Positions 9,963 to 50,918 of a stretch of DNA of 64,000 nucleotides are shown piece after piece. The position numbers were made by a program, and so were the translations under genes. The stretch is from NCBI GenBank assembly GCA_947165355.1, contig CAMUZZ010000002.1, forward strand, positions 519 to 64,518, in the 5' to 3' direction. Within the stretch, counting starts at the first letter, position 1. Each line of letters opens with the position of its first letter. The DNA is from an uncultured Clostridium sp. (GTDB lineage Bacteria > Bacillota > Clostridia > TANB77 > CAG-508). The notes under the pieces were generated by a model. That model saw only the letters and a list, made by a program, of their open reading frames with translations. It had not been told where the DNA came from and made no database searches.

Positions 9963-10000
9963 CACAAAAAAGGAGCACACCATCTTTCTGGTGCGCTCCT
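9963..10000 (-). terminator. Terminator of cassette A1
   Basis: Minus strand reads AGGAGCGCACCA-GAAAGA-TGGTGTGCTCCT followed by TTTTTT. Confidence 0.7.
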
Positions 10001-10003
10001 TAC

Positions 10004-10231
10004 TCACTGCTCATCTTTCGTTTTGAGGTTGAGCAGGGCTTCGGCCATGCCAAGAAGAGTTTCCTCGTTGTCTCTTCGGGCTACTTCCCGGGGGTCTCCA
10101 GATGCGCTGCTTTTAGGCTCATGGTACCAAATTCCACGTGCGTGAAAATCGGCAATAATTGCCCTTAGCATAGACACATCTGCGCTTTCGATTTGAGCAT
10201 AGCGCTCATTGAACTCTTTGCGTGTGATCAT
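10004..10231 (-). CDS. GC-rich small protein A1 (75 aa), unknown family
   Basis: SD AGGAGG sits 6 nt before the ATG. About 50% GC by hand count (113/228). Paralog of 10457-10690 (shared TLLGMAE). Confidence 0.6.
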   Translation of the reverse strand: MITRKEFNERYAQIESADVSMLRAIIADFHARGIWYHEPKSSASGDPREVARRDNEETLLGMAEALLNLKTKDEQ

Positions 10232-10306
10232 TTGAACCTCCTGTTCATTTGTACCCTCAATTGAGGGGTTGGCCTATAGTACTATCAGAAGTACTGATAC
10301 ATTACT

Positions 10307-10335
10307 ATTATATCATATTATGTTTACTATTTCAA
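10307..10335 (-). promoter_or_regulatory. Sigma-A-type promoter of A1
   Basis: Minus strand: TTGAAA, 17 nt, TGATATAAT (extended -10). Confidence 0.55.
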
Positions 10336-10420
10336 ATAAATATAATTTTTATTCTATTAAATAACCAATATATTATTTAATCTTCAATTACATTCGATGA
10401 TAGAAAAGTAATTTAAAATT

Positions 10421-10450
10421 AGAAAAGCACACCAGCAAAACTGGTGTGCT
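10421..10450 (-). terminator. Terminator of cassette A2
   Basis: Minus strand reads AGCACACCAG-TTTTG-CTGGTGTGCT followed by TTTTC. The stem sequence is related to the A1 terminator. Confidence 0.65.
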
Positions 10451-10456
10451 AAAGTA

Positions 10457-10690
10457 TTAGGATTCTTCATCGTGCAACATATAAAGCTTATGCTCTGCCA
10501 TTCCAAGCAATGTTGCCTCTGCAGTTGCGCCTTCCATTACATCTGATTCTAAGTTTGTAAGATGGAAGTTCTCGTCTTTCAGAGCCTTTTTCATAAGAAC
10601 TCTGTAGCGTGCCGTGATTTCTAAAAGCCGTTTAAGACTGGCTTCTTCAATCTCAGCAACAGCTGCCTTAACTTCGTCTTTCGACATCAT
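10457..10690 (-). CDS. GC-enriched small protein A2 (77 aa), paralog of A1
   Basis: SD AGGAGG sits 8 nt before the ATG. It aligns with A1 without gaps. LLGMAE is encoded with synonymous differences (CTT GGA ATG GCA GAG versus CTT GGC ATG GCC GAA). Confidence 0.6.
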   Translation of the reverse strand: MMSKDEVKAAVAEIEEASLKRLLEITARYRVLMKKALKDENFHLTNLESDVMEGATAEATLLGMAEHKLYMLHDEES

Positions 10691-10766
10691 AAATTTAACC
10701 TCCTAATTTTGACACGATTTCATTCGAAATCTGGGCCTATGTACTTTCGTACGTCTAACAGCCCAT

Positions 10767-10795
10767 ATTATACCATTTTTTAGGTATTACGTCAA
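10767..10795 (-). promoter_or_regulatory. Sigma-A-type promoter of A2
   Basis: Minus strand: TTGACG, 17 nt, TGGTATAAT. A second AATTGACG direct repeat lies 24 nt upstream. Confidence 0.55.
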
Positions 10796-10889
10796 TTGTT
10801 GCAACATGTTTCGTCAATTCTACCTTTGCATTCTAGTATTTCTAATTTTATGTTATAACTATTTTAACTTTTTAAACACAACTTATTTA

Positions 10890-13262
10890 TTATTTTCTTA
10901 GTTTAACTCCACATTTGCTTTCTACAGTTTCAATTATTTTTTCGAAAACTGGCGTTATTTCTTCTTCAGTTAACGTCTTCTTTGGATCATTAAAAGTTAA
11001 AGAATATGCTATAGATTTTTCATTTTCTCCTACATTTTCACCAGTATAAACATCGAAAACCTCAATATTTGTAAGCAGGCTTCCTCCTGCTTTTTTTATG
11101 GCCATTTCAATGTCTTTTGATGTTTTAGTTTTATCCATAACAAAAGCAACGTCTTTATTGATATTTGGATATGCAGAAATTTCCTTGTACTTCATCTTTC
11201 CAACTCTTTTAGCTAATAATTTATCTAAATTTATTTCCATTACAAAAACAGGATCTTTTGCTTGAGATGGATGTAACTTTCCAACAATACCAACGCCTTC
11301 ACCATTTACGTTTATTTCCGCAACTTGACCTGGATGGAACTCTGATGGTATCTCCTTTGGTATTAAGAAGCTGTACCTGTTTGCGTATCCTAAGTAGTCT
11401 AACAATTCTTCTACAATACCTTTAATAATATAAAAATCAACATTTGATTGATTTCCAACACCAATATAATACTTTCCTGTCATTAATGCTGCAATTTTTT
11501 GATTTTCCCCATATTCTTCTCCTTTTTTGAAGAATCCTTTTCCAATTTCGAATATAGAAATATCTTTATTGTAGTGTGCTTTGTTATATTCATAGGTTTT
11601 AACAAGTGATGGAATAACACTGTATCTTAACGTATTACGCTCCTCTGTTATAGGATCTAGAAGTTTAAGCTCCTCAAACTTGTCTGTTGTGAACTTATGA
11701 ACATCTTTGTCGTTTATTAAAATATAAGTTAATGTTTCATTTAATCCAAGCTCAGACATTTTATGTCTTATTGATCTTATTGTATTGTCGTAATCGCCTG
11801 CTTTTTGACCCATAACTGGAATTGTTCCTTTGATGTTATCTACACCATAAATTCTACTTACTTCTTCAATTAAATCCTCTTTTATTGAAATATCTAATCT
11901 TCTACTTGGCACATTTACTGTAACTTCTGAATCATTTGCATCGTACGTAAATGCTAACTTACGAAATACATTTAATATTTCTTCTTTAGATATATCTGAT
12001 CCTAGTACATCGTTTATATTTTTATATGATATTGTAATTTTTTTATCTTCTGGAGAAGTTGCATCATACTGACAAATTCCAGTTTTAACAGTTCCACCAG
12101 CATATTTTTCTAGCATTTGACAAGCTCTTTCTATTGCCATGTATGTTCTATGACAATCTAATCCTTTTTCAAATCTATTGCTTGCTTCACTTCTTACTAT
12201 CTTTTTAGAAGTTTTTCTAACTTTTACACCATCAAATATAGCAGCTTCTATTATTATGTTCTTTGTTTCAGGAGTTACCTCTGTATCTAGTCCACCCATA
12301 ACACCAGCTAGTCCTACAGACTTTTCTTTATTTGCTATAACTATATCGTTGTCATCAAGATCTCTTTCAATATTATCTAGAGTTGTTAGTTTTTCTCCAT
12401 TTTCAGCCATTCTTACTACTATAGTGTCACCTAGTTTATCGGCATCGTAAAAATGTAAAGGTTGTCCAAGCTCTAGCATTACGTAATTACTTATATCTAC
12501 AACATTATTTATTGGTCGTATTCCACAAGCCATTAATCTATTTTTTATAAAATCTGGACTTTCTTTTATTTCGGCATTTTCAACCTTTTTAGCTAAGAAC
12601 AAACTACAGTTTTCAGTTTGAACATCAACTTTAAAGCTATTGTTGATGTCGTCGCCAGATTCACCATGGCTTAGATTTAGCTCTTTTACAGGCCTATCGT
12701 AAACAGCTCCAAGCTCATATGCCATGCCCAGCATGCTTAATAAATCTCCTCTATTTGCTGTTAATTCAAAATCAACTATCTCATCATCAAATCCTAAATA
12801 TTTAATTGGATCTTCACCAACTACACTATCTTCACCAAGCTCAGCTATTCCTTCCTTATCTTCTGGTTTTAAGAACTTGTTGTCCAAACCTAGCTCAGCA
12901 ATAGAACACATCATACCATTTGATTCAACACCTCTGATAGCACCTGCTTTTATTTCTCCTCCTGGTAATTTTGCACCTGGAAGTGCGACAATAACTTTAA
13001 TTCCGGCTCTTGCATTTGGAGCACCACAAACAATTTGCAATATATCTTTTCCAACATTTACTTTGCAAACATGCAAATGATCTGAATCTGGATGCTCTTC
13101 ACATGTAATTATTTCTCCAATTACCAAATTTGTACAATCAATAAAATTGCGTGCTTCATCGTATTCATTACCAACACGAGTCATATCTTCACCAATTGTT
13201 TTAATATCTATGTCATCTGGTAAATCTATATAATCTTTAACAAAATTTCTACTTAATATCAT
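10890..13262 (-). CDS. pheT: Phenylalanine--tRNA ligase beta subunit
   Basis: 790 aa with tRNA-binding, B3/4, B5 and FDX-ACB domain order. It lies immediately downstream of pheS. Confidence 0.95.
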   Translation of the reverse strand: MILSRNFVKDYIDLPDDIDIKTIGEDMTRVGNEYDEARNFIDCTNLVIGEIITCEEHPDSDHLHVCKVNVGKDILQIVCGAPNARAGIKVIVALPGAKLPGGEIKAGAIRGVESNGMMCSIAELGLDNKFLKPEDKEGIAELGEDSVVGEDPIKYLGFDDEIVDFELTANRGDLLSMLGMAYELGAVYDRPVKELNLSHGESGDDINNSFKVDVQTENCSLFLAKKVENAEIKESPDFIKNRLMACGIRPINNVVDISNYVMLELGQPLHFYDADKLGDTIVVRMAENGEKLTTLDNIERDLDDNDIVIANKEKSVGLAGVMGGLDTEVTPETKNIIIEAAIFDGVKVRKTSKKIVRSEASNRFEKGLDCHRTYMAIERACQMLEKYAGGTVKTGICQYDATSPEDKKITISYKNINDVLGSDISKEEILNVFRKLAFTYDANDSEVTVNVPSRRLDISIKEDLIEEVSRIYGVDNIKGTIPVMGQKAGDYDNTIRSIRHKMSELGLNETLTYILINDKDVHKFTTDKFEELKLLDPITEERNTLRYSVIPSLVKTYEYNKAHYNKDISIFEIGKGFFKKGEEYGENQKIAALMTGKYYIGVGNQSNVDFYIIKGIVEELLDYLGYANRYSFLIPKEIPSEFHPGQVAEINVNGEGVGIVGKLHPSQAKDPVFVMEINLDKLLAKRVGKMKYKEISAYPNINKDVAFVMDKTKTSKDIEMAIKKAGGSLLTNIEVFDVYTGENVGENEKSIAYSLTFNDPKKTLTEEEITPVFEKIIETVESKCGVKLRK

Positions 13263-13291
13263 TTTTTACCTCCTACTTATATTTTCGTTAT

Positions 13292-14341
13292 TTAAATATC
13301 CTTTCTGTCGAATTGCTTTAAGAATCTTACATCATTTGCATATAAATATCTCATATCTGGTATTCCATATTTAAACATTGCAAGTCTATCTATTCCAGTT
13401 CCAAATGCAAATCCGCCCCACTCCTCTGGGTCGTATCCATTCATTTTTAGAACATTTGGATGTACAATTCCTGAACCAAGAACTTCTATCCAACCTGTTT
13501 GCTTACATAAGCTACATCCTTTACCTCCGCATTTAAAACATGTACAATCAACTTCATAAGAAGGCTCTGTAAATGGGAAATAACTTGGTCTGAAACGTAA
13601 TTCCGTATTTTCTCCAAGCATTTTTTTCATAAATACTTCCAAAGTTCCTTTTAAATCAGCTAGAGAAACTTTATTTTCTTTTTTATCTATTACTAATCCT
13701 TCAACTTGATTGAATTGATGAGAGTGTGTTGCATCATCTTCTCTTCTATATGTTTTTCCAACGCAAATCATCTTTATTGGCTTTTGATCTTTTGCATATT
13801 TTAGCATCGTGTGAGCTTGTACAGCAGATGTTTGTGTACGAAGTAAATATTCATCAGTTATATAGAATGAATCTTGCATATCTCTTGCAGGATGTCCTTT
13901 TGGTAAATTTAATCTTTCGAAGCAAAACTCATCTGTTTCAAGCTCTGGACCATCTATAACCTCGTATCCCATTGAAACAAATAAATCTTCAATTTCTTCA
14001 ATTGTTCTATTTAGTGGATGCTCGCTTCCTCTTATAGCCTTTTTGCTTGGAAGAGTTATATCTATTGTTTCTTTTTCTAATTTTTTGTTTAATTCTTCTA
14101 ATTTAAAAGCCTCTTCTTTCTCATTTATAATAGTTTCTAACTCATCTCTTACTTCGTTTACCAAGCTTCCAATTATTGGTCTTTCTTCAGCAGATAAACC
14201 TCCCATTCCTCTTAAAACAGAAGTTAATTCACCTTTTTTTCCTAGATATTTAACTTTTAAATCAACTAAAGTTTTTAAATCTTCTACCTTAGAGATTTCT
14301 TCTTTAGCAGTTAATTTAATTTTCTCAATTTCTTCTTTCAT
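13292..14341 (-). CDS. pheS: Phenylalanine--tRNA ligase alpha subunit
   Basis: [23 protein letters not shown] and [13 protein letters not shown] class II motifs. Confidence 0.95.
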
Positions 14342-14401
14342 AATTTCTTCCTTTCTTGGCAGTTTGATTTTAGAATTTTATATTCTAAATTTTACGTTTT
14401 T

Positions 14402-14459
14402 GAATTTTTTGCACCGTCCAAAATTTGACTTAATTTTTTTTGTTCCGTCCCCAAAATTC
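14402..14459 (-). repeat. Tandem pair (R3a, R3b) of the GGGGACGG-core repeat in the pheS 5' UTR
   Basis: Minus strand reads GAATTTTGGGGACGGAACAAAAAAAATTAAG then CAAATTTTGGACGGTGCAAAAAATTC, between the T-box terminator and the pheS SD. Confidence 0.7.
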
Positions 14460-14463
14460 AAAA

Positions 14464-14727
14464 AGAGCTATTCATCCTTAATAGGACGAATAGCTCGTGG
14501 TACCACCTAATTTTATATATTTATGCCAATGCTAAAAAGCTTGCATTTATATACCTTGTTATAGTTTTAACGTAACAACCGTATTGCCTACTATTACTTT
14601 CAGCAAATAACCTAAAAAGTGAAATTTCGTACATATTATGCTTTTTGGATTCACAGCTTAATATCCAAATTCTCTTTAAACAAAACATATATACTACTTT
14701 GCTTTTTAATTGGCTTATTTTAAATAT
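14464..14727 (-). promoter_or_regulatory. T-box riboswitch leader of pheST
   Basis: The T-box sequence AGGTGGTACCACGAGC overlaps the terminator GAGCTATTCGTCC-TATTAAG-GATGAATAGCTC plus TTTTT. An AGAGA box sits in stem I, and a candidate UUC specifier lies in GAAATTTCAC. The promoter TTGTAC-17-TGATACAAT is at 14734-14762. Confidence 0.8.
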
Positions 14728-14779
14728 GTTTAGATTGTATCATACAATTACAAAAAGTACAAGCATACTTTGCAATAAA

Positions 14780-15190
14780 CTAGAATATGCTATAAGCTAC
14801 TAAAGTAATTATAAATCCTAAAACAGCTAAAGCTAAGTCTATTATACCTAGAACTATACCAGCTGTTGCCATACCTTTTCCTTTTTGCTCTGGGAAAATT
14901 TTTAGTTTATTTTTTGCAGCTATACCTAAGCTTAAAGCTATAATTCCAAGCCATAAGTTAGCAATAAAAATACCTACAATACCACAAACCATAGCAGCAA
15001 TTGCTAGTCCATTTGTTTTTGGTGCCACACCTGCTTGACTTGCATTTGTGTTTACTGTTTGTGTGTTATTAACTACTACTGGCTCCTCTTTTACTTCTGT
15101 TTTTTCAACTTCTGCTTTTGCTCCGCAGTTTGGGCAAAATTTTTCGTCATCTCCTAACATTGTTCCACAATGCATACAAAAATTACTCAT
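14780..15190 (-). CDS. Zinc-ribbon membrane protein (DUF4190-like C-terminus)
   Basis: CMHCG...CPNCG zinc ribbon plus Gly/Ile-rich TM hairpins. SD AAGGAGAG. Confidence 0.6.
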   Translation of the reverse strand: MSNFCMHCGTMLGDDEKFCPNCGAKAEVEKTEVKEEPVVVNNTQTVNTNASQAGVAPKTNGLAIAAMVCGIVGIFIANLWLGIIALSLGIAAKNKLKIFPEQKGKGMATAGIVLGIIDLALAVLGFIITLVAYSIF

Positions 15191-15204
15191 TTTAATCTCT
15201 CCTT

Positions 15205-15606
15205 TTATTTTTCGTTTACTATTGATTCTATTTGTGCTATACCTGATACAAGACCCATTCTCATAACAGAGTTCACATATATTTTACTATATTCTGAAGA
15301 AAAATCAATCTCTTTTTGATAAGCTTCTCCAAATGTATCGAATACAACCTTGTGAGTTCCTGCTGGCAATTCAACTTCAGCAGATGCTCCATTTTTAAGT
15401 GATGCAACATTATTTCCGTCAACAAAAATTCTTATTGGAATAGCACATCCCATTAGTCTTTTTCTTCTAGTGAATACAACTTTAACAGTTTTATTTTCTG
15501 GTGCTTTTATATTTTGCTCAAAAAGCGCTCTGTCTATTTTAGTTCCACAAAATTTACAAAATTCGCTTTCGTTTGGTATTTCTTTTCCACACTTATTACA
15601 AAACAT
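15205..15606 (-). CDS. Zinc-ribbon domain protein
   Basis: MFCNKCGKEIPNESEFCKFCG. Start moved to 15606 behind AAAGGGGA. Confidence 0.55.
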   Translation of the reverse strand: MFCNKCGKEIPNESEFCKFCGTKIDRALFEQNIKAPENKTVKVVFTRRKRLMGCAIPIRIFVDGNNVASLKNGASAEVELPAGTHKVVFDTFGEAYQKEIDFSSEYSKIYVNSVMRMGLVSGIAQIESIVNEK

Positions 15607-15732
15607 TAACTTATCCCCTTTCACCATTTTCCAAGATTTTATCATATATTCGCTGTTTTTTCAAGCTATATTGTGTTTTATTTACATAATTTAACATTAA
15701 TTTATATAGTTGTATTTTTTGCTTATCGTTAT

Positions 15733-15996
15733 TTACATCATTAAAAACTTAAGCAATATAATTAGTATAAATCCTGGAATACCTAATAATCCCGTGCAAA
15801 GTACCGTCCAAATGTTTATTCCTATGTGAAAGTTATAATTTGTACCAATTAAATTTGTAATCCATATTAATCCAGCACCCAATAAAGAATTTACTATTAA
15901 TTTAAATATTCTTTTTATTGGAAACAAAAATGATCTTCCAATAAATACTACTAAAGCTATGCATCCGATATATAAAAATAAAGCATAATTTTCCAT
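15733..15996 (-). CDS. bofA: Pro-sigma-K processing inhibitor BofA
   Basis: 87 aa with 2 TM and a C-terminal GLLGIPG motif typical of BofA. A yaaL-like gene is nearby, as in Bacillus. Confidence 0.65.
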   Translation of the reverse strand: MENYALFLYIGCIALVVFIGRSFLFPIKRIFKLIVNSLLGAGLIWITNLIGTNYNFHIGINIWTVLCTGLLGIPGFILIILLKFLMM

Positions 15997-16047
15997 AAAA
16001 TCACCTCTTTATTACTTATGTGATTTTGGACAAATTATGCTTATGTT

Positions 16048-17601: not shown

Positions 17602-17652
17602 TTTATTTTCCTTCAATTTTTTTGATTATTATATTATAGATTTACATAAAAT

Positions 17653-18015: not shown

Positions 18016-18044
18016 TTGACATTATTAACATAATGTGCTAGAAT
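18016..18044 (+). promoter_or_regulatory. Sigma-A-type promoter of cassette B
   Basis: TTGACA, 17 nt, TGCTAGAAT. Confidence 0.5.
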
Positions 18045-18380: not shown

Positions 18381-18430
18381 TGGAGACCAGGTAAGTGTAT
18401 TTTTACACATTGCCTGGTCTCCACTCTTTT
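18381..18430 (+). terminator. Terminator of cassette B
   Basis: GGAGACCAGG ... CCTGGTCTCC, then CTCTTTTT. Confidence 0.7.
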
Positions 18431-18449
18431 TATAATTATATTTTATATA

Positions 18450-19748: not shown

Positions 19749-19993
19749 AATTAATCTCCCCTTTACTTTTATTTTGCGTGAAAAAACAAAAAGGACAGTA
19801 CCTAAGGCGTGCATAGCACGGTACCATCCTCTATTTAACTTTATAATTTTAACGGTTTTAAACCGGAAATAGTTTTCTATTTCACTTATAGGTAGGAATT
19901 AAACAATATTATAATTTGGTTTTCACTGTCCCAAACTCACTATATATAAGAGCTTATTTAATTATGTCCTAATCAACGTTTTTTATTTAACTT
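19749..19993 (-). promoter_or_regulatory. T-box riboswitch leader (Pro specifier candidate)
   Basis: T-box AGAGGATGGTACCGTGC overlaps a terminator ending in TTTTTGTTTTTT. The candidate specifier is CCT in TTAATTCCTACC. The promoter TTGACT-17-TGATATAAT is at 20000-20028. Confidence 0.75.
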
Positions 19994-20030: not shown

Positions 20031-20058
20031 AAAAACGGGGCGGACATACATCCACCCC
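20031..20058 (-). terminator. Terminator of cassette C
   Basis: Minus strand reads GGGGTGGA-TGTATG-TCCGCCCC followed by GTTTTT. Confidence 0.65.
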
Positions 20059-20066
20059 ATAGAAAC

Positions 20067-20330
20067 TCACTTGAACGCTTCCGCGTTCTCGGATTCTGCT
20101 GCCGACTGATTACAAACTTTTTCCGCAATCTTACGGAGAAGCTCCGTTTGCTTGCGCTGTTCATCCAGGAGTAACATAATGCAATTCTCTACGTTATGCA
20201 TCTCCTGCATAATGTCCTGGCTCTTATTTGCCGTATAGTCTGTTGCTTCCGAAGATTTTTTTACAATTCCCCGAATGTCCATCAGCGCCTCTAAAATCCG
20301 AGGCATTTCGTAATCGTAATTGCCGCCCAT
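20067..20330 (-). CDS. GC-enriched small helical protein C (87 aa), unknown family
   Basis: Start set at MGGNYDYEMPRILEAL (20330) behind AAAGGAG. The longer track ORF has no SD. Confidence 0.5.
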   Translation of the reverse strand: MGGNYDYEMPRILEALMDIRGIVKKSSEATDYTANKSQDIMQEMHNVENCIMLLLDEQRKQTELLRKIAEKVCNQSAAESENAEAFK

Positions 20331-20400
20331 GGTGAGCTCCTTTCTCCAGCAATGCTGGTTAAAAATTTTTACATGTGACATATCTGCCACATCCAATATA

Positions 20401-20429
20401 ATTATACCATTTTTATGTTAACCGGTCAA
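20401..20429 (-). promoter_or_regulatory. Sigma-A-type promoter of cassette C
   Basis: Minus strand: TTGACC, 17 nt, TGGTATAAT. Confidence 0.5.
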
Positions 20430-20481: not shown

Positions 20482-21963
20482 TTATAATGAAAATATTTTT
20501 ATTCGCTTATCAATAATGCAACTTTGTATATTGTTCCTTCTATATGACTTAATTCTGTATTCATTCTTTCCATTAAATATAAATTTTACAACTTTTGTAT
20601 AATCAGTATCGCTTATTGGACCCTTTTCTTCTATTTCAATAGTTGCATTACACTGTTTTAAAGTCTCAAAAGTCGTAATAAAACCAATACCAGAACCTCC
20701 TGTATCTTTGTGAGTAGTTGCTGGCTCAATTCCTAATTTTGCTAAAGTTTCTATTTCAAACTCAATGCCAGTGTCTGATATACATAGCTCATAGTATTTT
20801 TCGTTTAAACCAATAAAAGTAAATATTTTTTTATTACTACTATCAATTGAATTAATTGCGATTATAGCATCTTTAATATGATCACCTATCATCGTTTCTA
20901 ACTGTTCTTTTGATATTAGCGCATTAATCATGTGATGTATGTTACCGCTTACTTTTAAGTTAAACTCTATGTTGTTTTGAACACACTCATCTTGCATGTA
21001 TTTGAACATATCATCAATTTCACTAATATCAGTTTTTGGAAGCTCAATTATCAATCTATTTTCTTTTAGCTTATTAGAATGTTCTTTTGTTAACTCTTGT
21101 ATTCTAGATAATATTTCGTTATCTTCAGCGAACTCTGTATCTGCTTTTTTTAATTTTTCATTTACCATTTTTTCAAGAGCTCTCTGACGATTATAAAACT
21201 CATGATTTATTTTACTAACACGGAATGATTCTTCAGTTAATCGTTTTATCTCTGAATCTTTCTCTTGAATTTTAAGCTCATAATCTTTTATAGTGTCGTT
21301 GGTTAGTTTTTGTTTATAATACATTACTATAGTTTTTTGAATTATAACTGTAGTTAATACTCCAAGTAGTATATAAAACCAAAATAACGATTTATATATC
21401 ATTTCATTAGCATAAGTAATAAATGTATACACTAACACTAAAACAATACTAATATTTATTACAGCAATATCAATGTATTCATTTTGTCTCTGTAAGAAGA
21501 TAAATCCATCCTTTAGCCTTCTGGTTTTAAAAATAAAAAACAAAAACATTGCTTCTACTACTTCAATTAAAATTACATTAATTACCAAGCTTATATTATT
21601 ATCTGCTTTAATCAATAATGCTCTTTGGAATACCACAAATTCAATTATTGCAGAAATAACCATTAGTATTAAGGAAACAGCATTGGAAATCATGATTCCA
21701 ACAGTTACGTTTCCCGTCTTTTTCTTGGTAATTGCTTTTATTGCAATTGTTTCAAATATACAAATCATTATCACACTTACAATAATATCAAACACTGTTC
21801 TAAGCAAAAGATACATAATTGTTGACAGAATAACTAGAATACCCATATAAATTTTTTGATATAGTTTAGTATTTTTATAGTTATTAATCTTAAAAAAAAT
21901 CAAAATTGCATAAAAATTTATAAATACAATTTTTACGATATAATTAAAATAATCTACGTTCAT
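20482..21963 (-). CDS. Polytopic sensor histidine kinase (about 6-7 TM, coiled coil, GHKL ATPase)
   Basis: Start at MNVDYFNY (21963) behind GGAGG. Candidate H-box SKINHEFYNRQ. C-terminal ISDTGIEF...GGSGIGF ATP-binding motifs. Confidence 0.8.
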   Translation of the reverse strand: MNVDYFNYIVKIVFINFYAILIFFKINNYKNTKLYQKIYMGILVILSTIMYLLLRTVFDIIVSVIMICIFETIAIKAITKKKTGNVTVGIMISNAVSLILMVISAIIEFVVFQRALLIKADNNISLVINVILIEVVEAMFLFFIFKTRRLKDGFIFLQRQNEYIDIAVINISIVLVLVYTFITYANEMIYKSLFWFYILLGVLTTVIIQKTIVMYYKQKLTNDTIKDYELKIQEKDSEIKRLTEESFRVSKINHEFYNRQRALEKMVNEKLKKADTEFAEDNEILSRIQELTKEHSNKLKENRLIIELPKTDISEIDDMFKYMQDECVQNNIEFNLKVSGNIHHMINALISKEQLETMIGDHIKDAIIAINSIDSSNKKIFTFIGLNEKYYELCISDTGIEFEIETLAKLGIEPATTHKDTGGSGIGFITTFETLKQCNATIEIEEKGPISDTDYTKVVKFIFNGKNEYRIKSYRRNNIQSCIIDKRIKIFSL

Positions 21964-21997
21964 GTAAACCTCCAATTTTATTGGGTTTATTATATCG

Positions 21998-22044
21998 AAA
22001 ATAAAAAAAATAATCAACATAACTGTTTAACCAATTATGTTGAT
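21998..22044 (-). terminator. Hairpin terminator between the 13-codon ORF and the kinase
   Basis: Minus strand reads ATCAACATAA-TTGGTTAAACAG-TTATGTTGAT followed by TATTTTTTTTATTTT. Confidence 0.6.
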
Positions 22045-22055
22045 TTTTCTTAAAA

Positions 22056-22097
22056 CTAGATACCCATTATATATCTTATCCACTCCCAGAAGCTCAT
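22056..22097 (-). CDS. Candidate 13-aa peptide MSFWEWIRYIMGI
   Basis: ATG lies 6 nt after GGGAGGTGA, the stop is TAG, and its own terminator follows. Very short, so speculative. Confidence 0.3.
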   Translation of the reverse strand: MSFWEWIRYIMGI

Positions 22098-22322
22098 ATC
22101 TCTCACCTCCCGTTTCCTTTTGTTATTTCAAAAATATCATTGATAACGGGCATTTGCGGTGATTTGATGGACTGCACTTTTAGTAGAAAAATGTTTATAA
22201 TATGACAAAATATGATAATCAACAACAAAAAAAGAGCAAACCTTATTTTATTTAAGATTTGCTCTTAGATAGATTTATTTACTGTAAAAAAAAGCTTATA
22301 CTAATCGTATAAGCTTTTTTTA

Positions 22323-23099
22323 TTAAATTGTCTTTTTAATTTTGTCTGCATAGTAATATATAAATTCTGTTGGAGTTGGAACTCCAGTTTCATAATTAAT
22401 TCTTGCTGTATATAAATTGGTTAAATCTTCTATTGAAGAAATTCTCCATGCATGTAGTATTGCATTTTGCATTGCTCTGCTAATTGTGCTGCTAGCTCTT
22501 TTGTATTTTGAAACTAAATACTGTACAACCGGAATTGTTTCACCGTTGTCTGCATTTTTAATAACGTAATATATTGCATCAGCCAGATACTTTCTTCCTT
22601 TTAAGTGCATAGCAACACCAATTAAATCAAGCTCTTCATTAATTCTTTTAGAAATTACATCTTCTTCAGAATCTTCAAAATCAAGTTTTGCTTGGTTGGC
22701 TGTAGTTATTTTTCCACCACATTCATTCAAAAGTAGTAATGTATTCAACACATTCTCATGAGAAAAGTTAGCTTGATTCTTATAAAATATAAAATCTATT
22801 TTGTTTTTGTGAAGATAATTATAAACTGATTCAGAATATATGTTAGTAGTTACGATAATTTGGGGCATTTTTTCAGGCTTTTGGTCTTTTAATCCTTGAA
22901 TAAAATCAAAACCGCTACCTTCTCCTTCAGTTAATTCTAAGTCCAGTATAACTGCATCTGGGCTAAAGTTCTTAACGTGTTTTAAGCCTTCTGTTGAAGA
23001 GTTTGTAACTGCTACAATTTCTATGTTGTCCTTCATTTTAGCAATATCAGTATACTTTTTACATTCATTTGCATCATCTTCTACTATTAATATTCTCAT
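22323..23099 (-). CDS. Spo0A-like response regulator (REC + Spo0A_C-type DNA-binding domain)
   Basis: The REC domain has DAVILDLELTEG. The C-terminal LIGVAMHLKGRKYLADAIYYV, STISRAMQNAILHAWR and PTPTEFIYYYADKIK parallel B. subtilis Spo0A IGVPAHIKGYLYLREAI, SRVERAIRHAIEVAW and PTNSEFIAMVADKL. Confidence 0.85.
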   Translation of the reverse strand: MRILIVEDDANECKKYTDIAKMKDNIEIVAVTNSSTEGLKHVKNFSPDAVILDLELTEGEGSGFDFIQGLKDQKPEKMPQIIVTTNIYSESVYNYLHKNKIDFIFYKNQANFSHENVLNTLLLLNECGGKITTANQAKLDFEDSEEDVISKRINEELDLIGVAMHLKGRKYLADAIYYVIKNADNGETIPVVQYLVSKYKRASSTISRAMQNAILHAWRISSIEDLTNLYTARINYETGVPTPTEFIYYYADKIKKTI

Positions 23100-23153: not shown

Positions 23154-23298
23154 TTTATTATCATTTCATATCATACAACATTTTCTTTAATTGTTTAAAC
23201 TACATATGATTAAAACTTTAATCACAGGTTTAAAAAAGTGAATTTTTACATGGTTAGTTTTATTCAAAATCAACATTTTCAGAAAAAGGATGATAAAC

Positions 23299-23613
23299 AT
23301 GAAGGAAGAAATTGGAAAAAGAATTAAAAATGCTAGAGAAAATATGCATATGACAAAAGAAAGCTTTGCTAAAGAAATTGGAATTACCGGACAATACCTA
23401 GGAATTCTGGAAAAAGGTCAAAGCTACTTATCAGTGGAAAAACTAAAGAAATTGTGCGACTTAACAGGCTTATCTGCAGATTATATTTTATTTGGAAAAA
23501 CTATAACTATTGCTCATGACACCCAAAAAGTACTTTCCGGTTTTTCAGACGAACAAATTGCCAATGCTTGCAATACTTTAAAAGATTTAGCTTTGCTTAT
23601 AAAAAATGCATAG
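23299..23613 (+). CDS. XRE-family HTH transcriptional regulator
   Basis: MTKESFAKEIGITGQYLGILEKGQSYLSVEKLKKLCDLTG is a Cro/C1-type HTH. Confidence 0.8.
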   Translation: MKEEIGKRIKNARENMHMTKESFAKEIGITGQYLGILEKGQSYLSVEKLKKLCDLTGLSADYILFGKTITIAHDTQKVLSGFSDEQIANACNTLKDLALLIKNA

Positions 23614-23732
23614 CCTTATAAAAAAACATTACCTACCTTGAATATATTGTTTTTATTTTGAAAATAATATATTGACACAAAAATAGTTTATTGTTAGAAT
23701 GCTCTCTATATTAATTAGGGAGTTTTTTAACA

Positions 23733-23930
23733 ATGGATAACACAAATGAAACAATAAACGACGTATTTAAATCTGAAGAATATTTAAACAATGCCATGAA
23801 AATTGATACAATTAGTAAAGTTTTAATTGAACACTCTGATGTTCCAGAAGAGCTTGTAAATTGGCTTATTGAAGCTGTTAAAGACAACACCTGGCTTGAA
23901 GCAAGAGCTAAATATAACATACACAATTAA
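23733..23930 (+). CDS. Small hypothetical protein (65 aa)
   Basis: Own promoter TTGACA-17-TGTTAGAAT, SD AGGGAG and a strong hairpin terminator (AAGTCACTTACCAAAA...TTTTGGTAAGTGACTT). Host-like composition. Confidence 0.5.
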   Translation: MDNTNETINDVFKSEEYLNNAMKIDTISKVLIEHSDVPEELVNWLIEAVKDNTWLEARAKYNIHN

Positions 23931-44486: not shown

Positions 44487-44496
44487 AAAACCCTCT

Positions 44497-45501: not shown

Positions 45502-45542
45502 AAAATTCCCCCTCTTAATTTATTATTACAAATACTTATTTA

Positions 45543-46481
45543 CTAGTCTATATTTATTTTTTTCTTAATTATATACTGCGGTCTTTGTTTAGTTTCGTCG
45601 TATATTCTACCAATGTATTCAGATATTATTCTTAAAGATAGTAACTGAACTCCTGCAAAAAAAGTTATTCCTATCATTAGAGAAGTCCAACCTGCGGATA
45701 AGTCATTTAGCTTAAAAATGTACGATAATAAGGCATATACTAGTAATGCAAAAGATATGAATATGCTAAATACTCCCAAACCTCCAACGATTTTTAGAGG
45801 TTTATTTGAAAAACTAATTATTCCGTCGCTAGCTAGTCTAAGCATTTTTCTTAATGGATATTTTGTTTTTCCTGCAAAACGTTCTTTTCTTTCATATTCG
45901 TATGGAATCTGTTTGTATCCAACCCAACTAAACAAACCTCTTAAAAATTTGTTATGTTCTGGCATTTCATTTATAGTATCTACAACTTTTCTGTCTACTA
46001 GCCTAAAATCTCCTGTATCTTTTGGAATTTCAACGTCAGACAGAGCATTTAATGTTTTATAAAACATCTTTGCAGATAATAATTTAAATGGAGATTCTCC
46101 TGCTCTAGACTTTCTTTTGCCATATATTACTTCATATCCTTGCTCCCACAAATTTAACATTTCTGGTATTAGCTCTGGTGGATCTTGTAAATCCGCATCA
46201 ATAATTACTATTGCATCACCAGTTGCATACTTTAGTCCAGCAGTCACAGCTGCTTGATGTCCGAAATTTCTTGAGAATGAAATAACTTTTAAATTATCAT
46301 CATTTTGAGCAAGTTCTTCTAAAATATCTAATGTTTTGTCTTGGCTTCCATCGTTTACACAAACTATCTCATAGTAATACTCTTTTAAATTATTTAACGT
46401 GCTTGATAATCTTTTGTAGCATTCATTTACTACATCTTCTTCAAAGTACATTGGTACTATAATTGAAACCTTTTTCTTCAT
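45543..46481 (-). CDS. GT2 polyprenyl-phosphate glycosyltransferase (GtrB-like), paralog of 43530-44486
   Basis: IIVPMYFEE, VNDGSQD, IIDADLQDPPE, and 2 C-terminal TM. Confidence 0.8.
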   Translation of the reverse strand: MKKKVSIIVPMYFEEDVVNECYKRLSSTLNNLKEYYYEIVCVNDGSQDKTLDILEELAQNDDNLKVISFSRNFGHQAAVTAGLKYATGDAIVIIDADLQDPPELIPEMLNLWEQGYEVIYGKRKSRAGESPFKLLSAKMFYKTLNALSDVEIPKDTGDFRLVDRKVVDTINEMPEHNKFLRGLFSWVGYKQIPYEYERKERFAGKTKYPLRKMLRLASDGIISFSNKPLKIVGGLGVFSIFISFALLVYALLSYIFKLNDLSAGWTSLMIGITFFAGVQLLSLRIISEYIGRIYDETKQRPQYIIKKKINID

Positions 46482-46595
46482 TACGCCAGTTCTCCCTTAA
46501 AACTAAAGACGGTGCTAGACTCTAAAATTCTTACACCATCTTCTTTATAGTTACTGTTATGTTTTTACACGGAAAAATATTTTTTAAACTTAATT

Positions 46596-47561
46596 TTATT
46601 TTAACCAATCTGGATTTGCTAAGTACCAATCTATTGTTTTTATAATTCCATCTTCGAATTTTGTTTTTGGTTCCCATCCTAATTCATTTTTAATTTTTGT
46701 AGGATCTATAGCATATCTGTAGTCATGTCCTTTTCTGTCTGTTACATGCTCTATTAATGATTCTGGTTTGTTAAGATGTTTTAATATTAATTTAACAATT
46801 TCTATGTTTCTCTTTTCGTTGTGTCCACCAATATTATATCTTTCACCAGCTTTTCCTTTGTGTAATACTAGGTCTATTGCCTCACAGTGATCCTCTACAT
46901 ATAGCCAATCTCTTATGTTTAATCCTTCACCATATACTGGAAGCTTTTCATCTTTTAAAGCTAATTTAATCATATGAGGAATTAATTTTTCATTATGTTG
47001 ATATGGACCATAGTTGTTTGAACAGTTTGTTACTGATACGTTCATTTTATATGTTTCTTTGTATGCAAGAGCTATTAAATCTGAACTTGCTTTAGAAGCT
47101 GAATATGGTGAGTTTGGCTTAATTGGAGATTTTTCTGTGAAATATCCTTCTTCTCCTAAAGTACCATATACTTCATCTGTAGAAATGTGTACAAATTTGT
47201 TTGCACTACCTTCTCCCCAGAATCTTTTAGCGGCCTCTAATAAAGTATGTGTTCCTATTACGTTTGTTTGTGTAAATATGAAAGGTGTTTTTATGCTGTT
47301 ATCAACATGTGATTCAGCTGCAAAATGTACAACTGCGTCTATGTTGTATTTTTCGTATGTTTCCATTACTTTGTCTAGATCACATATATCACCTTGAACA
47401 AATTCTATTTTGTCCATTATTTTCTTTAAGTTATCCATATTTCCTGCATACGTTAGTTTATCGAATACTACAATGTTATATTCTGGATGTTTGTTTACCA
47501 TAAATTCTGCAAAGTTACTTCCTATAAATCCTGCAGCTCCTGTTACTAATATGTTTTTCAT
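46596..47561 (-). CDS. rfbB: dTDP-glucose 4,6-dehydratase
   Basis: TGAAGFIGSNF, STDEVYG, YSASKASSD. Confidence 0.95.
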   Translation of the reverse strand: MKNILVTGAAGFIGSNFAEFMVNKHPEYNIVVFDKLTYAGNMDNLKKIMDKIEFVQGDICDLDKVMETYEKYNIDAVVHFAAESHVDNSIKTPFIFTQTNVIGTHTLLEAAKRFWGEGSANKFVHISTDEVYGTLGEEGYFTEKSPIKPNSPYSASKASSDLIALAYKETYKMNVSVTNCSNNYGPYQHNEKLIPHMIKLALKDEKLPVYGEGLNIRDWLYVEDHCEAIDLVLHKGKAGERYNIGGHNEKRNIEIVKLILKHLNKPESLIEHVTDRKGHDYRYAIDPTKIKNELGWEPKTKFEDGIIKTIDWYLANPDWLK

Positions 47562-47586
47562 AATAATTATTCCTTCTTTCTTTTTT

Positions 47587-48492
47587 TTATTTTCCTACAA
47601 TTATGGTCTGATTACCATCTTTTTCAATATAATTTTCCTTAACGCCTAACTGATTCATCCATTCTCTTGTTTCTACTGTCTTATGCGGACCAGTATTATA
47701 TCCTTGTCCTATATTGTTATCCCATAACCATTGTGGCGTTGGCCATAAACAATATGTTGGACTAATTTCTTTATATAAATCAAATGTTGCTCCATTTTGT
47801 CCATGATGCGACATCTGAACATAATCGCTCTTTAGTTCGTCTTTGCAATTTTTTAATAATTTTTCACTACTTTCTTTACCTGTGTCGCCTAGAAACAAAA
47901 CTGTTTGCTTATCAATAAAAAATTTGTATACCGTACTTGTATTATTTCCAAAATTTTCTGTTATATCATTTTCGTATACATTAATTACCTTCACTTTTAT
48001 TTTTTTTGATATTTCAAACTCTTGTCCAAATTCAGGATTTATTATACTGTCTTTATCTTTTTGTTTTTCTAATGCATCATGTAATGAATCATATTGATTA
48101 ATTCTATCTGATTCATATTGTTCAACCATGCTCCTTGGCACTTCACGGTACACAATTGTGTCAATATCTATATCTGTATTGTTTATAATATCTACCAAAG
48201 CACCAGTATGGTCTGCATGATAGTGAGTTATAAACCAATAATCCACTTTTCCACCATTGTTGTTGATGTATTCTTGTAAATTATTAGAGTCTGCAGTTGT
48301 ACCTCCATCTACTACAATATTTTTGCCTGTACTAGTTTTGATAAAATATCCCATCATTTGTATTGGAGAATTATCTTTTAGCTGAGTTAATTCGACATAC
48401 TCTTTATCAGTGTGTTTAAAAGTTACTAATATTACAACAATGAGTAGTGTACTTGCTATACATGCTCTATAATATACGCTTTTGCTTTTCAT
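47587..48492 (-). CDS. Membrane-anchored/exported metallo-beta-lactamase-fold protein
   Basis: N-terminal TM and an HYHADHTG (HxHxDH) motif. Confidence 0.7.
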   Translation of the reverse strand: MKSKSVYYRACIASTLLIVVILVTFKHTDKEYVELTQLKDNSPIQMMGYFIKTSTGKNIVVDGGTTADSNNLQEYINNNGGKVDYWFITHYHADHTGALVDIINNTDIDIDTIVYREVPRSMVEQYESDRINQYDSLHDALEKQKDKDSIINPEFGQEFEISKKIKVKVINVYENDITENFGNNTSTVYKFFIDKQTVLFLGDTGKESSEKLLKNCKDELKSDYVQMSHHGQNGATFDLYKEISPTYCLWPTPQWLWDNNIGQGYNTGPHKTVETREWMNQLGVKENYIEKDGNQTIIVGK

Positions 48493-48511
48493 TGTTTTTT
48501 TTCCTCAATGA

Positions 48512-49090
48512 CTATATATTTTTAAATAAATCTGTTTCTTTTAATTCTTTTAATGATGGCCATAACGCATCTTTTTCTGATGTTAATAAATCTTCTGGTT
48601 TTAAATCTCCCATAGGCCAATTTATTGCTACATCTGGATCATTCCATTTTAATCCACCTTCAGCACTGTGATTATAAACATCGTCGCATTTATAAGCAAA
48701 TTCAGCTTCATCTGATAGTACTAAAAATCCATGTGCAAATCCCTTTGGAATCATAAACATTTTTTTGTTTTCTTCAGTTAGTATTACACCTTCCCATTTA
48801 CCATAAGTACTGCTTCCTGGTCTTAGGTCTACTGCAACATCAAAAACCTCTCCTTTAATGCATCTAACAAGCTTAGCTTGTGTATTTTCTTTTTGAAAAT
48901 GTAATCCTCTTAAAACACCTTTTTTAGATTTTGATTGGTTATCTTGTACAAAATCGTAATTTAATCCAATTTCTTCAAAATCTGCTTTACTATATGTTTC
49001 CATGAAATAACCTCTGTTATCTCCAAAAACTGTTGGTTCTACTATACATACACCTTCAATTGATGTGTCGGTTCTTTTAAATTTTCCCAT
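48512..49090 (-). CDS. rfbC: dTDP-4-dehydrorhamnose 3,5-epimerase
   Basis: DNRGYFMETY, RGLHFQ, PKGFAHGF. Start at MGKFKRTD (49090). Confidence 0.9.
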   Translation of the reverse strand: MGKFKRTDTSIEGVCIVEPTVFGDNRGYFMETYSKADFEEIGLNYDFVQDNQSKSKKGVLRGLHFQKENTQAKLVRCIKGEVFDVAVDLRPGSSTYGKWEGVILTEENKKMFMIPKGFAHGFLVLSDEAEFAYKCDDVYNHSAEGGLKWNDPDVAINWPMGDLKPEDLLTSEKDALWPSLKELKETDLFKNI

Positions 49091-49233
49091 GAATACTATC
49101 TCCTTAAAAAATATATTTTTGCAATTATATATTGCATCGATTGTGAGTATTTTATAACATAATTCAATATTTATCAATGGCTATTTTGTAAAATATGCAT
49201 GAAATATAAAAGAAACCTTGCTTAGGTTTCTTT

Positions 49234-50265
49234 TTATGTTATTGATCTTATAAAATACTCTAAACTATTTCCATCTGAAACTCTTACTCTTGGAAGTTTG
49301 TATTTATCGTCACCTGCTTTAACGCGTCCTCCTTCAACAGTAAAAGCCATAATAAATGGAGAATCTTTTAATGCGCTTATTGCTGTGTCGTTGTAGTGTC
49401 CAAAAGGATAGCAGAATATATTTGCATTACCAAGCATCTCTGATGATTTATTTAAATCTTCTAATATTTGGTCATGTGTCCAATTTACCATTCTTCCTTT
49501 TCCATTAGCACCTGCTTGATGCATGTTTACTGAATGAGATTCCCAAATAACACACTCCATTGTTGGGTCATATATGTCTGGATACATATCTAGTATTACG
49601 AAAGATGTTGCTGGAACATGATACTTTTGAAGCATTGGAACAGCAAACATAAAAAACGTTGGATTTCCATCATCTACTGTAAGAACAACACTTTTTGATG
49701 GTAGTTTTATTTTACCATCTACAAAGTCATTAACCTCTTCCCACGTTGGAAAATAAAAATCGTTCTCTGTCATATATTTTAATTGTTTTTCAAACATATT
49801 TATGTCTAAACAGTTATTGTCCATTTTGTCTTGTATATCATCATAGAAAAAATGATACATAAGAACTGGTAAACCATTTGTAAGCTCTTCTCTAACAATT
49901 ACCTTTTGAGTTTTTTCGGTTTTATTTCCAGCATTATCTGTTACGTACACTGTAACCTCGTACTCGCCTGCTTTTGAGGTATCAATTTCAGAATGTTGTA
50001 TTTTTGATGTTATATCTCCATCAATATCATCAGTTGCAGTTGCTTTAACTTTGTATTCTTCTCCAATTGCAATTATAGTTTTTTCATCTGAAAGAGTTAA
50101 CTCTGGGGCTACAGTATCTGAAACCTTGTTTTTTTCACCAACTAGAGTATTTTCCTCCTTGTTATTGAATTTCTTTGATATAAAAATTACAGCTACTACA
50201 ACAAGAGCTATAAATAATAAAAAAAATATTGGATTTTTTTGCTTTTTGCCATATCTCTTACTCAT
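49234..50265 (-). CDS. Polysaccharide deacetylase (NodB) with N-terminal TM and Ig-like domain
   Basis: LTVDDG NodB motif and an upstream DDIDGDITSKI Ig-like segment. Confidence 0.75.
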   Translation of the reverse strand: MSKRYGKKQKNPIFFLLFIALVVVAVIFISKKFNNKEENTLVGEKNKVSDTVAPELTLSDEKTIIAIGEEYKVKATATDDIDGDITSKIQHSEIDTSKAGEYEVTVYVTDNAGNKTEKTQKVIVREELTNGLPVLMYHFFYDDIQDKMDNNCLDINMFEKQLKYMTENDFYFPTWEEVNDFVDGKIKLPSKSVVLTVDDGNPTFFMFAVPMLQKYHVPATSFVILDMYPDIYDPTMECVIWESHSVNMHQAGANGKGRMVNWTHDQILEDLNKSSEMLGNANIFCYPFGHYNDTAISALKDSPFIMAFTVEGGRVKAGDDKYKLPRVRVSDGNSLEYFIRSIT

Positions 50266-50350
50266 TATTTTTCCCCCTTACTAAACTTTATTTATTTTAT
50301 CCAAAATGCTTATTTTAGTCAATATAAAACTAAATATATGCAGCGGCAAT

Positions 50351-50379
50351 TTGATAAAATTTACATAATGTGGTATAAT
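50351..50379 (+). promoter_or_regulatory. Sigma-A-type promoter of cassette D
   Basis: TTGATA, 17 nt, TGGTATAAT. Confidence 0.5.
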
Positions 50380-50457
50380 ATATTTACTGTTAGCAAATGG
50401 CTACAGTCGCTCTTCGGAGTGTAAACAAACCTACCACAATTAAGGGAGGAAACACAA

Positions 50458-50877
50458 ATGAAAAAGGCATTTCTGTTAGGTTTTGGCGTAATCGTTACCC
50501 TTCTGGGAACGATAGGATTTCTTCTTCTGCCGGTGTTTATACACTTGGTAGTTACAAAGTGCTTCGTCGACATGAGTGCTGGTACGAAATTAATTCTTTT
50601 CTGCATTGCAATTGAAGGATGTTTTGTACAAGCCGGTATACTCGAGTATTTATCCAAAAAAGAATACGGAGGAAGTCCTTGGGTGATACTGAGAGTATCG
50701 CTGATTCCCCTAGCTATAATAATATTTGCCACTATAGTAGCGTGGCCTGCAGTATTATTAGAGCACCTGGGATTCGGTAGCACGGCACAATATCTTGGCA
50801 CATTCATATGGCTTGTGGTTTTTATTTTTATTTTGATTGCAGTCGCAGTTTACGAACCCAAAACAGAAAAGCACTAA
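50458..50877 (+). CDS. GC-enriched 4-TM membrane protein D (139 aa), unknown family
   Basis: SD AAGGGAGGA. It is the only plus-strand gene inside the minus-strand polysaccharide locus. Composition is visibly higher in GC. The antisense track ORF at 50361-50807 is a shadow. Confidence 0.55.
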   Translation: MKKAFLLGFGVIVTLLGTIGFLLLPVFIHLVVTKCFVDMSAGTKLILFCIAIEGCFVQAGILEYLSKKEYGGSPWVILRVSLIPLAIIIFATIVAWPAVLLEHLGFGSTAQYLGTFIWLVVFIFILIAVAVYEPKTEKH

Positions 50878-50888
50878 AACACAAAAAA

Positions 50889-50918
50889 AGGAGTAGTGAA
50901 TTCTACTCCTCTTTTCTT
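50889..50918. terminator. Bidirectional terminator (cassette D / rfbA)
   Basis: AGGAGTAG-TGAATT-CTACTCCT, flanked by an A-run and a T-run. Confidence 0.7.

Follow-up and report, generated by a model that had tools for sequence, protein, structure and literature searches.

GC-rich, moron-like orphan gene cassettes in the core chromosome of an AT-rich gut Clostridium

Single open reading frames (ORFs) that carry their own promoter and factor-independent terminator, and that are patchily distributed and accessory, are known from phages as morons (Juhala/Hendrix concept; PMC3594210). Five units of a similar build occur in a stretch of 64,000 nucleotides (nt) from an uncultured Clostridium sp. (GTDB lineage Bacteria; Bacillota; Clostridia; TANB77; CAG-508; GenBank assembly GCA_947165355.1, contig CAMUZZ010000002.1, positions 519–64,518 of the forward strand), which as a whole is referred to as the window. 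These cassettes, C1 to C5, encode the proteins P1 to P5 and are numbered by position in the window. They are best read, at a probability of roughly 0.55, as five monocistronic, lineage-restricted accessory genes of four families that are moron-like and stem from an unsampled, GC-richer gene pool. Like morons, the cassettes have their own promoter and intrinsic terminator around a single ORF, differ in composition from their neighbors (G+C content at third codon positions, GC3, of 0.37–0.54 compared with 0.18 ± 0.02), and, in the case of C1/C2 and C4, sit between genes that in relatives are direct neighbors. Unlike morons, they reside in the core chromosome—next to pheT/cdaA, proS, a Spo0A-kinase gene, and rfbA—and not in a prophage; no phage genes lie nearby, no PHROG matches, the shift in composition is toward higher GC, and some are conserved across sister lineages. 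Moron-like orphan cassettes in a core chromosome, with an unusual compositional signature across a clade, are what is new here.

Species-specific orphan genes of gut bacteria have a GC and GC3 that track the host GC almost one-to-one, with a rho of 0.96 (Genome Res 2024, PMC11293555). The cassette genes resemble these orphans in being short and poorly codon adapted, in their restriction to a species or genus, in the purifying selection on them, and in mostly lacking viral matches. Their GC3, in contrast, is two to three times the host value, and since the surveyed orphans track host GC, the cassette genes are atypical orphans. Integron cassettes are also compact single-gene units, often small orphans, with a composition unlike that of the host. 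The units described here differ from them in that each has its own promoter and terminator, in that there is no attC-like site, integrase, or array, and in that they are scattered over 41 kb. Type I toxin–antitoxin genes and dual-function RNAs (hok/sok-like mRNAs, SR1, RNAIII) are likewise small stand-alone genes with strong promoters and structured transcripts; the predicted pairing of 5′ and 3′ regions over the Shine–Dalgarno (SD) region in C3 and C4 and the hydrophobicity of P5 are further points of likeness. Type I toxins, however, have less than 60 amino acids (aa), whereas P1 to P4 are hydrophilic with 75–93 aa and P5 has 139 aa, and there is no Rfam match. No strong antisense promoter or antisense RNA was identified at the cassettes.

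Composition, expression signals, and coding capacity

The five ORFs are compositionally foreign compared with the host genes. The GC content of the window is 29.5%, and that of the ORFs is 0.496 (P1), 0.419 (P2), 0.422 (P3), 0.455 (P4), and 0.402 (P5). A preliminary description of this DNA had counted 113 G+C in 228 nt for the ORF at 10004–10231, which a recount reproduces exactly, and its estimate of about 40–45% for the other four agrees with the computed 0.402–0.455. The only non-genic regions that reach at least 0.40 GC in 200-nt windows are the ORFs of the five cassettes; the remaining GC peaks of the window lie within host genes of normal GC3. The GC3 of the ORFs is 0.49, 0.40, 0.47, 0.54, and 0.37 for P1 to P5, respectively, and that of 46 long host ORFs of the window is 0.180 ± 0.023, with a maximum of 0.235, which places the five at z-scores of 8–15. 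A codon adaptation index (CAI)-like measure built on host genes gives 0.29–0.43 for the five ORFs and 0.72 ± 0.04, with a minimum of 0.64, for the host. Among 17,068 host codons there is a single CGG, whereas the 471 cassette codons include five, with each of P1 to P4 using it at least once; CTC, CTG, CCC, CGC, and GCC are 7- to 30-fold enriched in cassette codons over host codons. The codon counts and the CAI-like index thus bear out the earlier remark that codons rare in the housekeeping genes (CGG, CCC, GCC, CTG) are used; a GC3 and codon usage within the norm of the host, which would have spoken against a foreign composition, is found for none of the five, all of which lie far outside. The G+C content at first and second codon positions (GC1, GC2) is raised as well and entails an altered amino-acid composition. 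A systematic scan of the window revealed no further ORF of aberrant GC3.

The expression signals of the five cassettes are uniform. All five promoters match TTGACA-17-TATAAT at 11 of 12 positions and carry, in addition, a TG extension of the −10 box; the window holds eight such extended −10 sites, five of which are the cassette promoters. The SD sequences are AGGAGG in C1 and C2, GAGGGAG in C3, AAGGAG in C4, and GGGAGG in C5. The start codons are located 6–9 nt past these strong SDs, and each ORF occupies its transcript. Every cassette also features a hairpin at its 5′ end and a terminator hairpin rich in G+C. In Firmicutes, 5′-terminal stem–loops of this kind stabilize mRNA against 5′-end-dependent decay. 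A near-consensus promoter, a strong SD, and a GC-stem terminator of its own, as had been stated for each cassette, are hence found for all five, and so is the combination of host-like expression signals with a foreign-looking coding sequence.

As judged from these signals and from conservation, the five ORFs appear to be protein genes, P3 less surely so. An ortholog of P4, P0006, occupies the corresponding position between the kinase gene and proS in another lineage (L140/L141). Counted from a common MG(G)NYDYE start, the two are 56% identical, with a ratio of nonsynonymous to synonymous divergence (dN/dS) of 0.18 and a proportion of synonymous differences (pS) of 0.70. The in-frame upstream extension of P4 is not conserved, and the start is therefore the ATG at 20330. 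P5 has an ortholog, P0004, at the same position between the polysaccharide deacetylase gene and rfbA in a lineage of ∼79% DNA identity; the two proteins are 80% identical, again with a dN/dS of 0.18. Purifying selection is thus indicated for P4 and P5, the cases in which orthologs allowed the test. P1 and P2 are tandem paralogs with 31% identity (E = 0.003 in a single pairwise comparison) and have the motif E-x-TLLGMAE in common, with synonymously different codons; because of this relationship, the cassettes represent four unrelated families and not five. For P3, no ortholog was found by tblastn in the loci of relatives, so its coding case rests on the SD, the length of the ORF, and the GC1 > GC2 pattern. 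Single-nucleotide polymorphisms within the species were dropped as a coding test since the loci had been retrieved by exact-protein look-up and are hence biased.

The islands might instead be structured noncoding RNA genes, typical of AT-rich genomes, in which the ORFs are fortuitous. Such genes would be GC-rich and carry a promoter and a terminator of their own, stop codons are rare in GC-rich sequence, and the whole transcripts fold more stably than dinucleotide shuffles, with z-scores of −3.6 to −8.8. This excess is partly due to the terminator and leader hairpins. In Rfam 15, no cassette has a match, neither at the gathering threshold over the whole window nor at E ≤ 1 at each site; the only matches in the window are tmRNA, tRNA-Met, and two T-boxes. 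No consensus structure with covariation support was found in a 190-aa family of relatives either. The dN/dS values of P4 and P5, the retention of the P1/P2 motif at the peptide level in the protein of a related locus (L006) with synonymous changes beneath, and ORFs that span the transcript from a strong SD onward speak for coding, and noncoding RNA genes are considered very unlikely.

The products are orphans. P1 to P5 have no match above threshold in Pfam, NCBIfam, PHROGs, or PADLOC—in agreement with the statement that no family could be recognized for any product—and the PADLOC models of antiphage defense recognize none of the cassette proteins. A sequence search of the PDB with P3 and P4 gave just weak coiled-coil noise. 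A word-indexed search of 5.8 billion proteins with a P1/P2 profile, P4, and P5 returned only the queries themselves and the two same-site orthologs, and HMMER, run exhaustively on 1.84 billion representatives with the profile of P1/P2, returned only self. No homolog beyond the species or genus, the mark of a species-specific orphan, is thus found for P1/P2, P4, and P5. P3 is unmatched in Pfam, NCBIfam, PHROGs, PADLOC, the PDB, phage sequences, IMG/VR, and a tblastn of the relatives' loci, a set that includes no protein search of a large database.

The products may act by binding proteins or membranes and could have strain-specific roles related to conflict or niche. P4 is acidic and soluble and is predicted to be a helical hairpin; the AlphaFold2 model features helices at residues 5–27 and 31–85 at a mean predicted local distance difference test (pLDDT) score of 75. 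With 87 aa and a location beside a probable Spo0A kinase, it resembles the phosphorelay regulators of the Sda/Spo0E type. Unlike Spo0E, it has no Spo0E-like Pfam match and no SQELD motif—it has KSQDI instead, and the Spo0E-like family PF09388 does not match at E ≤ 1—and it is absent from relatives that keep the kinase–proS synteny. Its C-terminal LLxEQRKQxELL motif is reminiscent of YebO-like proteins (PF13974), with 20.9 bits at E = 4.4e-4 over the C-terminal 31 residues only, which is below the family cut-off of 27 bits. One may speculate that P4 modulates the adjoining kinase.

Presence in relatives and origin of the cassettes

The host belongs to an uncultured lineage of gut Clostridia related to Clostridium sp. 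CAG:492, CAG:440, and CAG:575; the nearest pheT match, at 89% identity, is from metagenome-assembled genomes of sheep gut. The cassettes are flanked by cdaA, pheT, a DUF2508/YaaL-like gene, proS with its T-box leader, the kinase gene, the polysaccharide deacetylase gene, and rfbA. These neighbors are as named before, except that the gene of a 53-aa membrane protein sits between C1 and cdaA. A tblastn search with P1 to P4 against 80 pheT loci of relatives (with 10-kb flanks) and 44 proS loci gave no homolog. At three of the pheT loci (L004, L005, and L010), the conserved promoter of the 53-aa protein gene follows directly after pheT, and C2 and C1 are absent; compared with these loci, the window carries ∼890 extra bases (∼9946–10840). 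The locus L006, with a pheT of 89% identity, features at the C1/C2 site one GC-rich ORF of 74 aa that has the promoter block of C1 and a DNA motif of C2 but is otherwise diverged almost past recognition in its coding sequence. At L095 and L096, the kinase–proS synteny is kept, the space of C4 is filled with unrelated AT-rich DNA, and the promoter and T-box of proS are conserved up to the C4 terminator. C5 is also present in the sole relative compared at the deacetylase/rfbA site. An alignment of the loci had been proposed as a check, and it reveals presence and absence with clean boundaries for C1/C2 and C4; ordinary orthologs at the same site in all relatives, the finding that would have contradicted the proposal, are not what is seen, as there are relatives without C1, C2, and C4. 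The foreign look of the coding sequences stands. Repeated recent acquisition, however, is too simple a description: C4 and C5 are older than a lineage split across which synonymous divergence is saturated or nearly so.

Independent assemblies from ENA, Logan, and NCBI contain the same cassette junctions, with 98–100% identity, which excludes chimerism of the assembly. De novo birth from local noncoding DNA would fit orphans in intergenic space. The origin of bacterial orphan genes is debated in general, with import, rapid divergence, and de novo birth as the candidates. The present host, however, is so AT-rich (GC3 of ∼0.1–0.2) that composition cleanly separates orphans from native DNA: local intergenic DNA is AT-rich and cannot yield a GC3 near 0.5, and the cassettes do not contain the GC-rich repeats similar to repetitive extragenic palindromes (REP) that occur in relatives. 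Local de novo birth is thereby excluded, and both of these origins are hardly credible.

The cassettes had also been proposed to be a dispersed family of mobile mini-cassettes or one multipart system of unclustered parts. The common architecture and promoter type and the occurrence of all five in the same species would suit either proposal. Beyond the −10 box, there is no sequence, end, repeat, or att-like site shared among the cassettes, apart from C1 and C2, and no integrase, transposase, or attC-like site was found, the integrase being checked among the window ORFs examined. Hence, no common ends, repeats, or recombinase point to a mobile family, relatedness is limited to C1/C2, and nothing ties the five together as one system except residence in the same species. 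The orthologs of P4 and P5 came from different sample sets and occur without evidence of the other cassettes, and the cargo that relatives carry at these sites is unrelated. The architecture, furthermore, is not particular to the cassettes. An AT-rich, stand-alone ORF of 65 aa at 23733–23930 (+) with host-like composition features an 11/12 extended −10 promoter (23672–23700), an SD, and a terminator, and the promoter of the proS leader is of the cassette type as well, so that this build is a general one in the organism. One mobile family or one dispersed system is accordingly judged very unlikely.

Related lineages carry other GC-rich ORFs (GC3 of 0.35–0.60) at equivalent intergenic sites, unrelated to P1 to P5. 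A family of 177–216 aa follows pheT downstream but is encoded on the other strand (L032, L045, and L070), two paralogs of 215 aa lie upstream of proS (L110–L118), and single ORFs of 74–93 aa are found at L031, L048, and L065. None of these has a match in Pfam, PHROGs, or PADLOC. Between L032 and L070, pheT has 95% protein identity, a synonymous divergence (dS) of 0.30, and a GC3 of 0.10–0.11, and the GC-rich gene beside it has 58% identity, a dS of 1.14, a nonsynonymous divergence (dN) of 0.33, and a GC3 of 0.42–0.47. P4 and its ortholog similarly share 56% identity between lineages whose proS is 94% identical. Alleles that are far more diverged than their flanks imply either a GC-richer pool with repeated import at the same site or a composition maintained in place. 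AT-rich unrelated insertions are found at the hot spots, too, namely ∼750 nt after pheT (L009:12380–13140) and ∼400 nt between the kinase gene and proS (L095:1236–1700), and the sites hence turn over cargo of either composition.

Each unit consists of a strong sigma-A-type extended −10 promoter, a 5′ stem–loop, an SD, the ORF, and an intrinsic terminator and is slotted into the intergenic space between core genes with the signals of the neighbors left undisturbed. In the favored reading, the most likely history would be that the cassettes were imported from an unsampled, GC-richer gene pool and were then exchanged at a small number of intergenic hot spots by recombination between their conserved flanks. 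Several observations weigh against this history. The P4 orthologs keep a GC3 of 0.53 and 0.64 despite saturated synonymous divergence. In the 190-aa family of relatives, the changes inferred at synonymous third positions number 21 from weak (A/T) to strong (G/C) bases and 15 in reverse, although host GC3 there is ∼0.1; weak-to-strong changes are thus not outnumbered, contrary to a passive amelioration of an old import. The predicted mRNA folding of the GC-rich ORFs is in excess, which hints at selection on RNA. A donor or mobile vector was not found in phage GenBank records or IMG/VR; the tblastn of phage records covered P3, P4, and two ORFs of relatives, and the IMG/VR scans covered all families. 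The sole IMG/VR match, a weak one, aligns 30 aa of P4 at 50% identity with a 57-aa ORF on a high-GC viral contig, and an origin from phage was set aside as a candidate on these searches. The AlphaFold2 model of P3 is unusable (pLDDT of 46), and Foldseek with the P4 model returned nothing below E = 2.6 from the PDB and BFVD.

The main competing explanation holds that the cassettes are native, fast-evolving genes whose GC-richness is upheld by selection and is not a relic of import. The selected trait might be compact, highly structured, GC-rich mRNAs that escape AU-directed RNases and persist, for instance, under stress or in sporulation; another possible cause is GC-biased gene conversion at hot spots of recombination. 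The stationarity of GC3 in the orthologs and the lack of an excess of strong-to-weak changes favor this explanation, and the promoter and 5′ untranslated region (UTR) are under strong constraint. In addition, an SD-proximal segment of C4, GAGCUCAC, is predicted to base-pair with the region of the stop codon in both orthologs, more strongly in L140.

Folding of the coding sequences (CDSs) was compared with synonymous-codon permutations. The window genes have z-scores of −4.4, −1.5, −1.8, −2.3, and −4.3, the orthologs and GC-rich ORFs of relatives −2.2 to −5.9, host segments +0.7 to −1.3, and 28 Escherichia coli genes of 34–60% GC −0.75 ± 1.24. Seven independent families are more stably folded than the E. 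coli set (Mann–Whitney p = 4e-4). Nulls that preserve local or per-site GC weaken the signal: p is 0.025 for the seven families and rises to 0.11 when only the five window genes are considered, and the 190-aa family of relatives has no conserved consensus structure (covariation term of +3.15). The excess of mRNA folding is suggestive—a lead rather than a finding. Moreover, native genes would have to account for their absence at the same sites in close relatives, for CGG codons that the host almost never uses, and for raised GC1 and GC2 that change the amino-acid composition. A native origin is rated as rather improbable.

A broader proposal is that the cassettes represent a distinct gene class of CAG:492/440-like gut Clostridia with genomes of ∼1.5 Mb: GC-rich, hypervariable, orphan, monocistronic genes at fixed hot spots. 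Their GC and folding might be maintained because transcripts are stable or translationally gated or because of biased gene conversion, or the sites might be fed steadily from an unsampled, GC-rich mobile reservoir that targets them. This proposal is tentative and, on present evidence, doubtful. Were the distinct-class or the reservoir version true, composition would be a built-in tracer of the source of orphan genes. The cassettes in any case offer a tractable system for setting continual import from an unseen pool against selection on composition and RNA structure, and they flag five expressed-looking small proteins in an uncultured gut lineage of reduced genome.

Individual cassettes and their surroundings

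C2 and C1 form a two-cassette block on the minus strand (9946–10840, C2 first) that is absent at this site in close relatives, as judged by alignment with L004, L005, and L010. The C1 promoter (10307–10335, −) has the form TTGAAA, 17 nt, TG-n-TATAAT, and its block is kept in L006. The 5′ UTR (10232–10300, −) features a 5′-terminal hairpin and a second hairpin, and the AGGAGG SD lies within a small hairpin loop. P1 (10004–10231, −) is an acidic, soluble protein of 75 aa. The C1 terminator (9970–10001, −) has a 13-bp stem followed by a T-run, with a stem homologous to that of the C2 terminator (10426–10450, −). The C2 promoter (10767–10795, −) has the form TTGACG, 17 nt, TG-n-TATAAT, and P2 (10457–10690, −) is, like its paralog, acidic and soluble, with 77 aa. 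The gene of the 53-aa single-transmembrane protein next to C1 is AT-rich (9700–9861, −), with a promoter at ∼9898–9926 and a terminator at 9655–9674, and is conserved in many relatives (13 tblastn matches).

C3 is transcribed in the direction opposite to that of nearly all host genes. Its promoter (18016–18044, +) has the form TTGACA, 17 nt, TG-n-TAGAAT, and P3 (18093–18374, +), of 93 aa, is predicted to be soluble. A long G+C-rich hairpin with T-runs (18382–18431), seen in sequence and fold between the convergent C3 and proS, probably acts as a bidirectional terminator. In the predicted fold of C3 (18051–18432, +), the SD region pairs with the tail past the terminator; the C4 counterpart spans 20035–20394 (−).

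The C4 promoter (20401–20429, −) has the form TTGACC, 17 nt, TG-n-TATAAT and, compared with the ortholog locus L140, shows ∼2 differences over 50 nt. The 5′ UTR (20331–20394, −) features two hairpins, kept in L140 by means of compensatory changes, and then the AAGGAG SD. The CDS of P4 spans 20067–20330 (−), and the T-run of the C4 terminator (20035–20060, −) lies directly against the −35 box of the promoter of the proS leader. The T-box leader of proS (19802–19985, −) scores 56.7 bits at E = 4e-11, compared with an Rfam gathering score of 93, with strong sequence conservation in L095, L096, and L140. On the other side of C4, the region 20482–23099 (−) contains the gene of a 512-aa protein with multiple transmembrane segments (20482–22020) and, adjoining it, that of Spo0A (22323–23099; REC and Spo0A_C domains). 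The 512-aa protein has a weak HATPase_c match and is probably an orphan sporulation kinase directed to Spo0A. With ∼60% identity between lineages whose proS is 94% identical, the kinase itself is hypervariable. An XRE-type helix–turn–helix gene (23290–23613, +) precedes the 65-aa ORF at 23733–23930.

The C5 promoter (50351–50379, +) has the form TTGATA, 17 nt, TG-n-TATAAT and is kept in L084. Two hairpins of the 5′ UTR (50386–50457, +), one at the 5′ end and one with a UUCG tetraloop, are retained in L084, and the GGGAGG SD comes after them; as in C4, the hairpins are retained in the ortholog with compensatory changes. P5 (50458–50877, +) is a basic integral membrane protein of 139 aa with about four predicted transmembrane segments. 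A hairpin common to C5 (+) and rfbA (−) is positioned at 50883–50916 and would serve as a terminator on either strand. Antisense to P5, an ORF of 148 aa (50361–50807, −) extends into the C5 promoter and has no SD. It was rejected as a gene and is probably a by-product of the GC-rich codons of P5, in which Tyr, His, and Gln are scarce.

Some relatives have GC-rich islands without an ORF immediately after pheT (L062:2541–2800, L064:5620–5850, and L079:12368–12610), which are arrays of the REP-like palindrome TGTAGGGG... This repeat occurs in 5–13 copies per locus in L079, L064, L067, L062, and L061 and belongs to no Rfam family. Common in some relatives and absent from the cassettes of the window, it was rejected as a source of the cassettes. 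The locus L079 also carries a skipping-rope RNA (7449–7529; RF02924, 73 bits). Nearly all genes of the window are on the minus strand, with a uniformly negative GC skew, and C3 and C5 are among the few genes on the plus strand. A tmRNA gene at 4727–5081 (+) encodes the tag peptide ADNTELAYAA.

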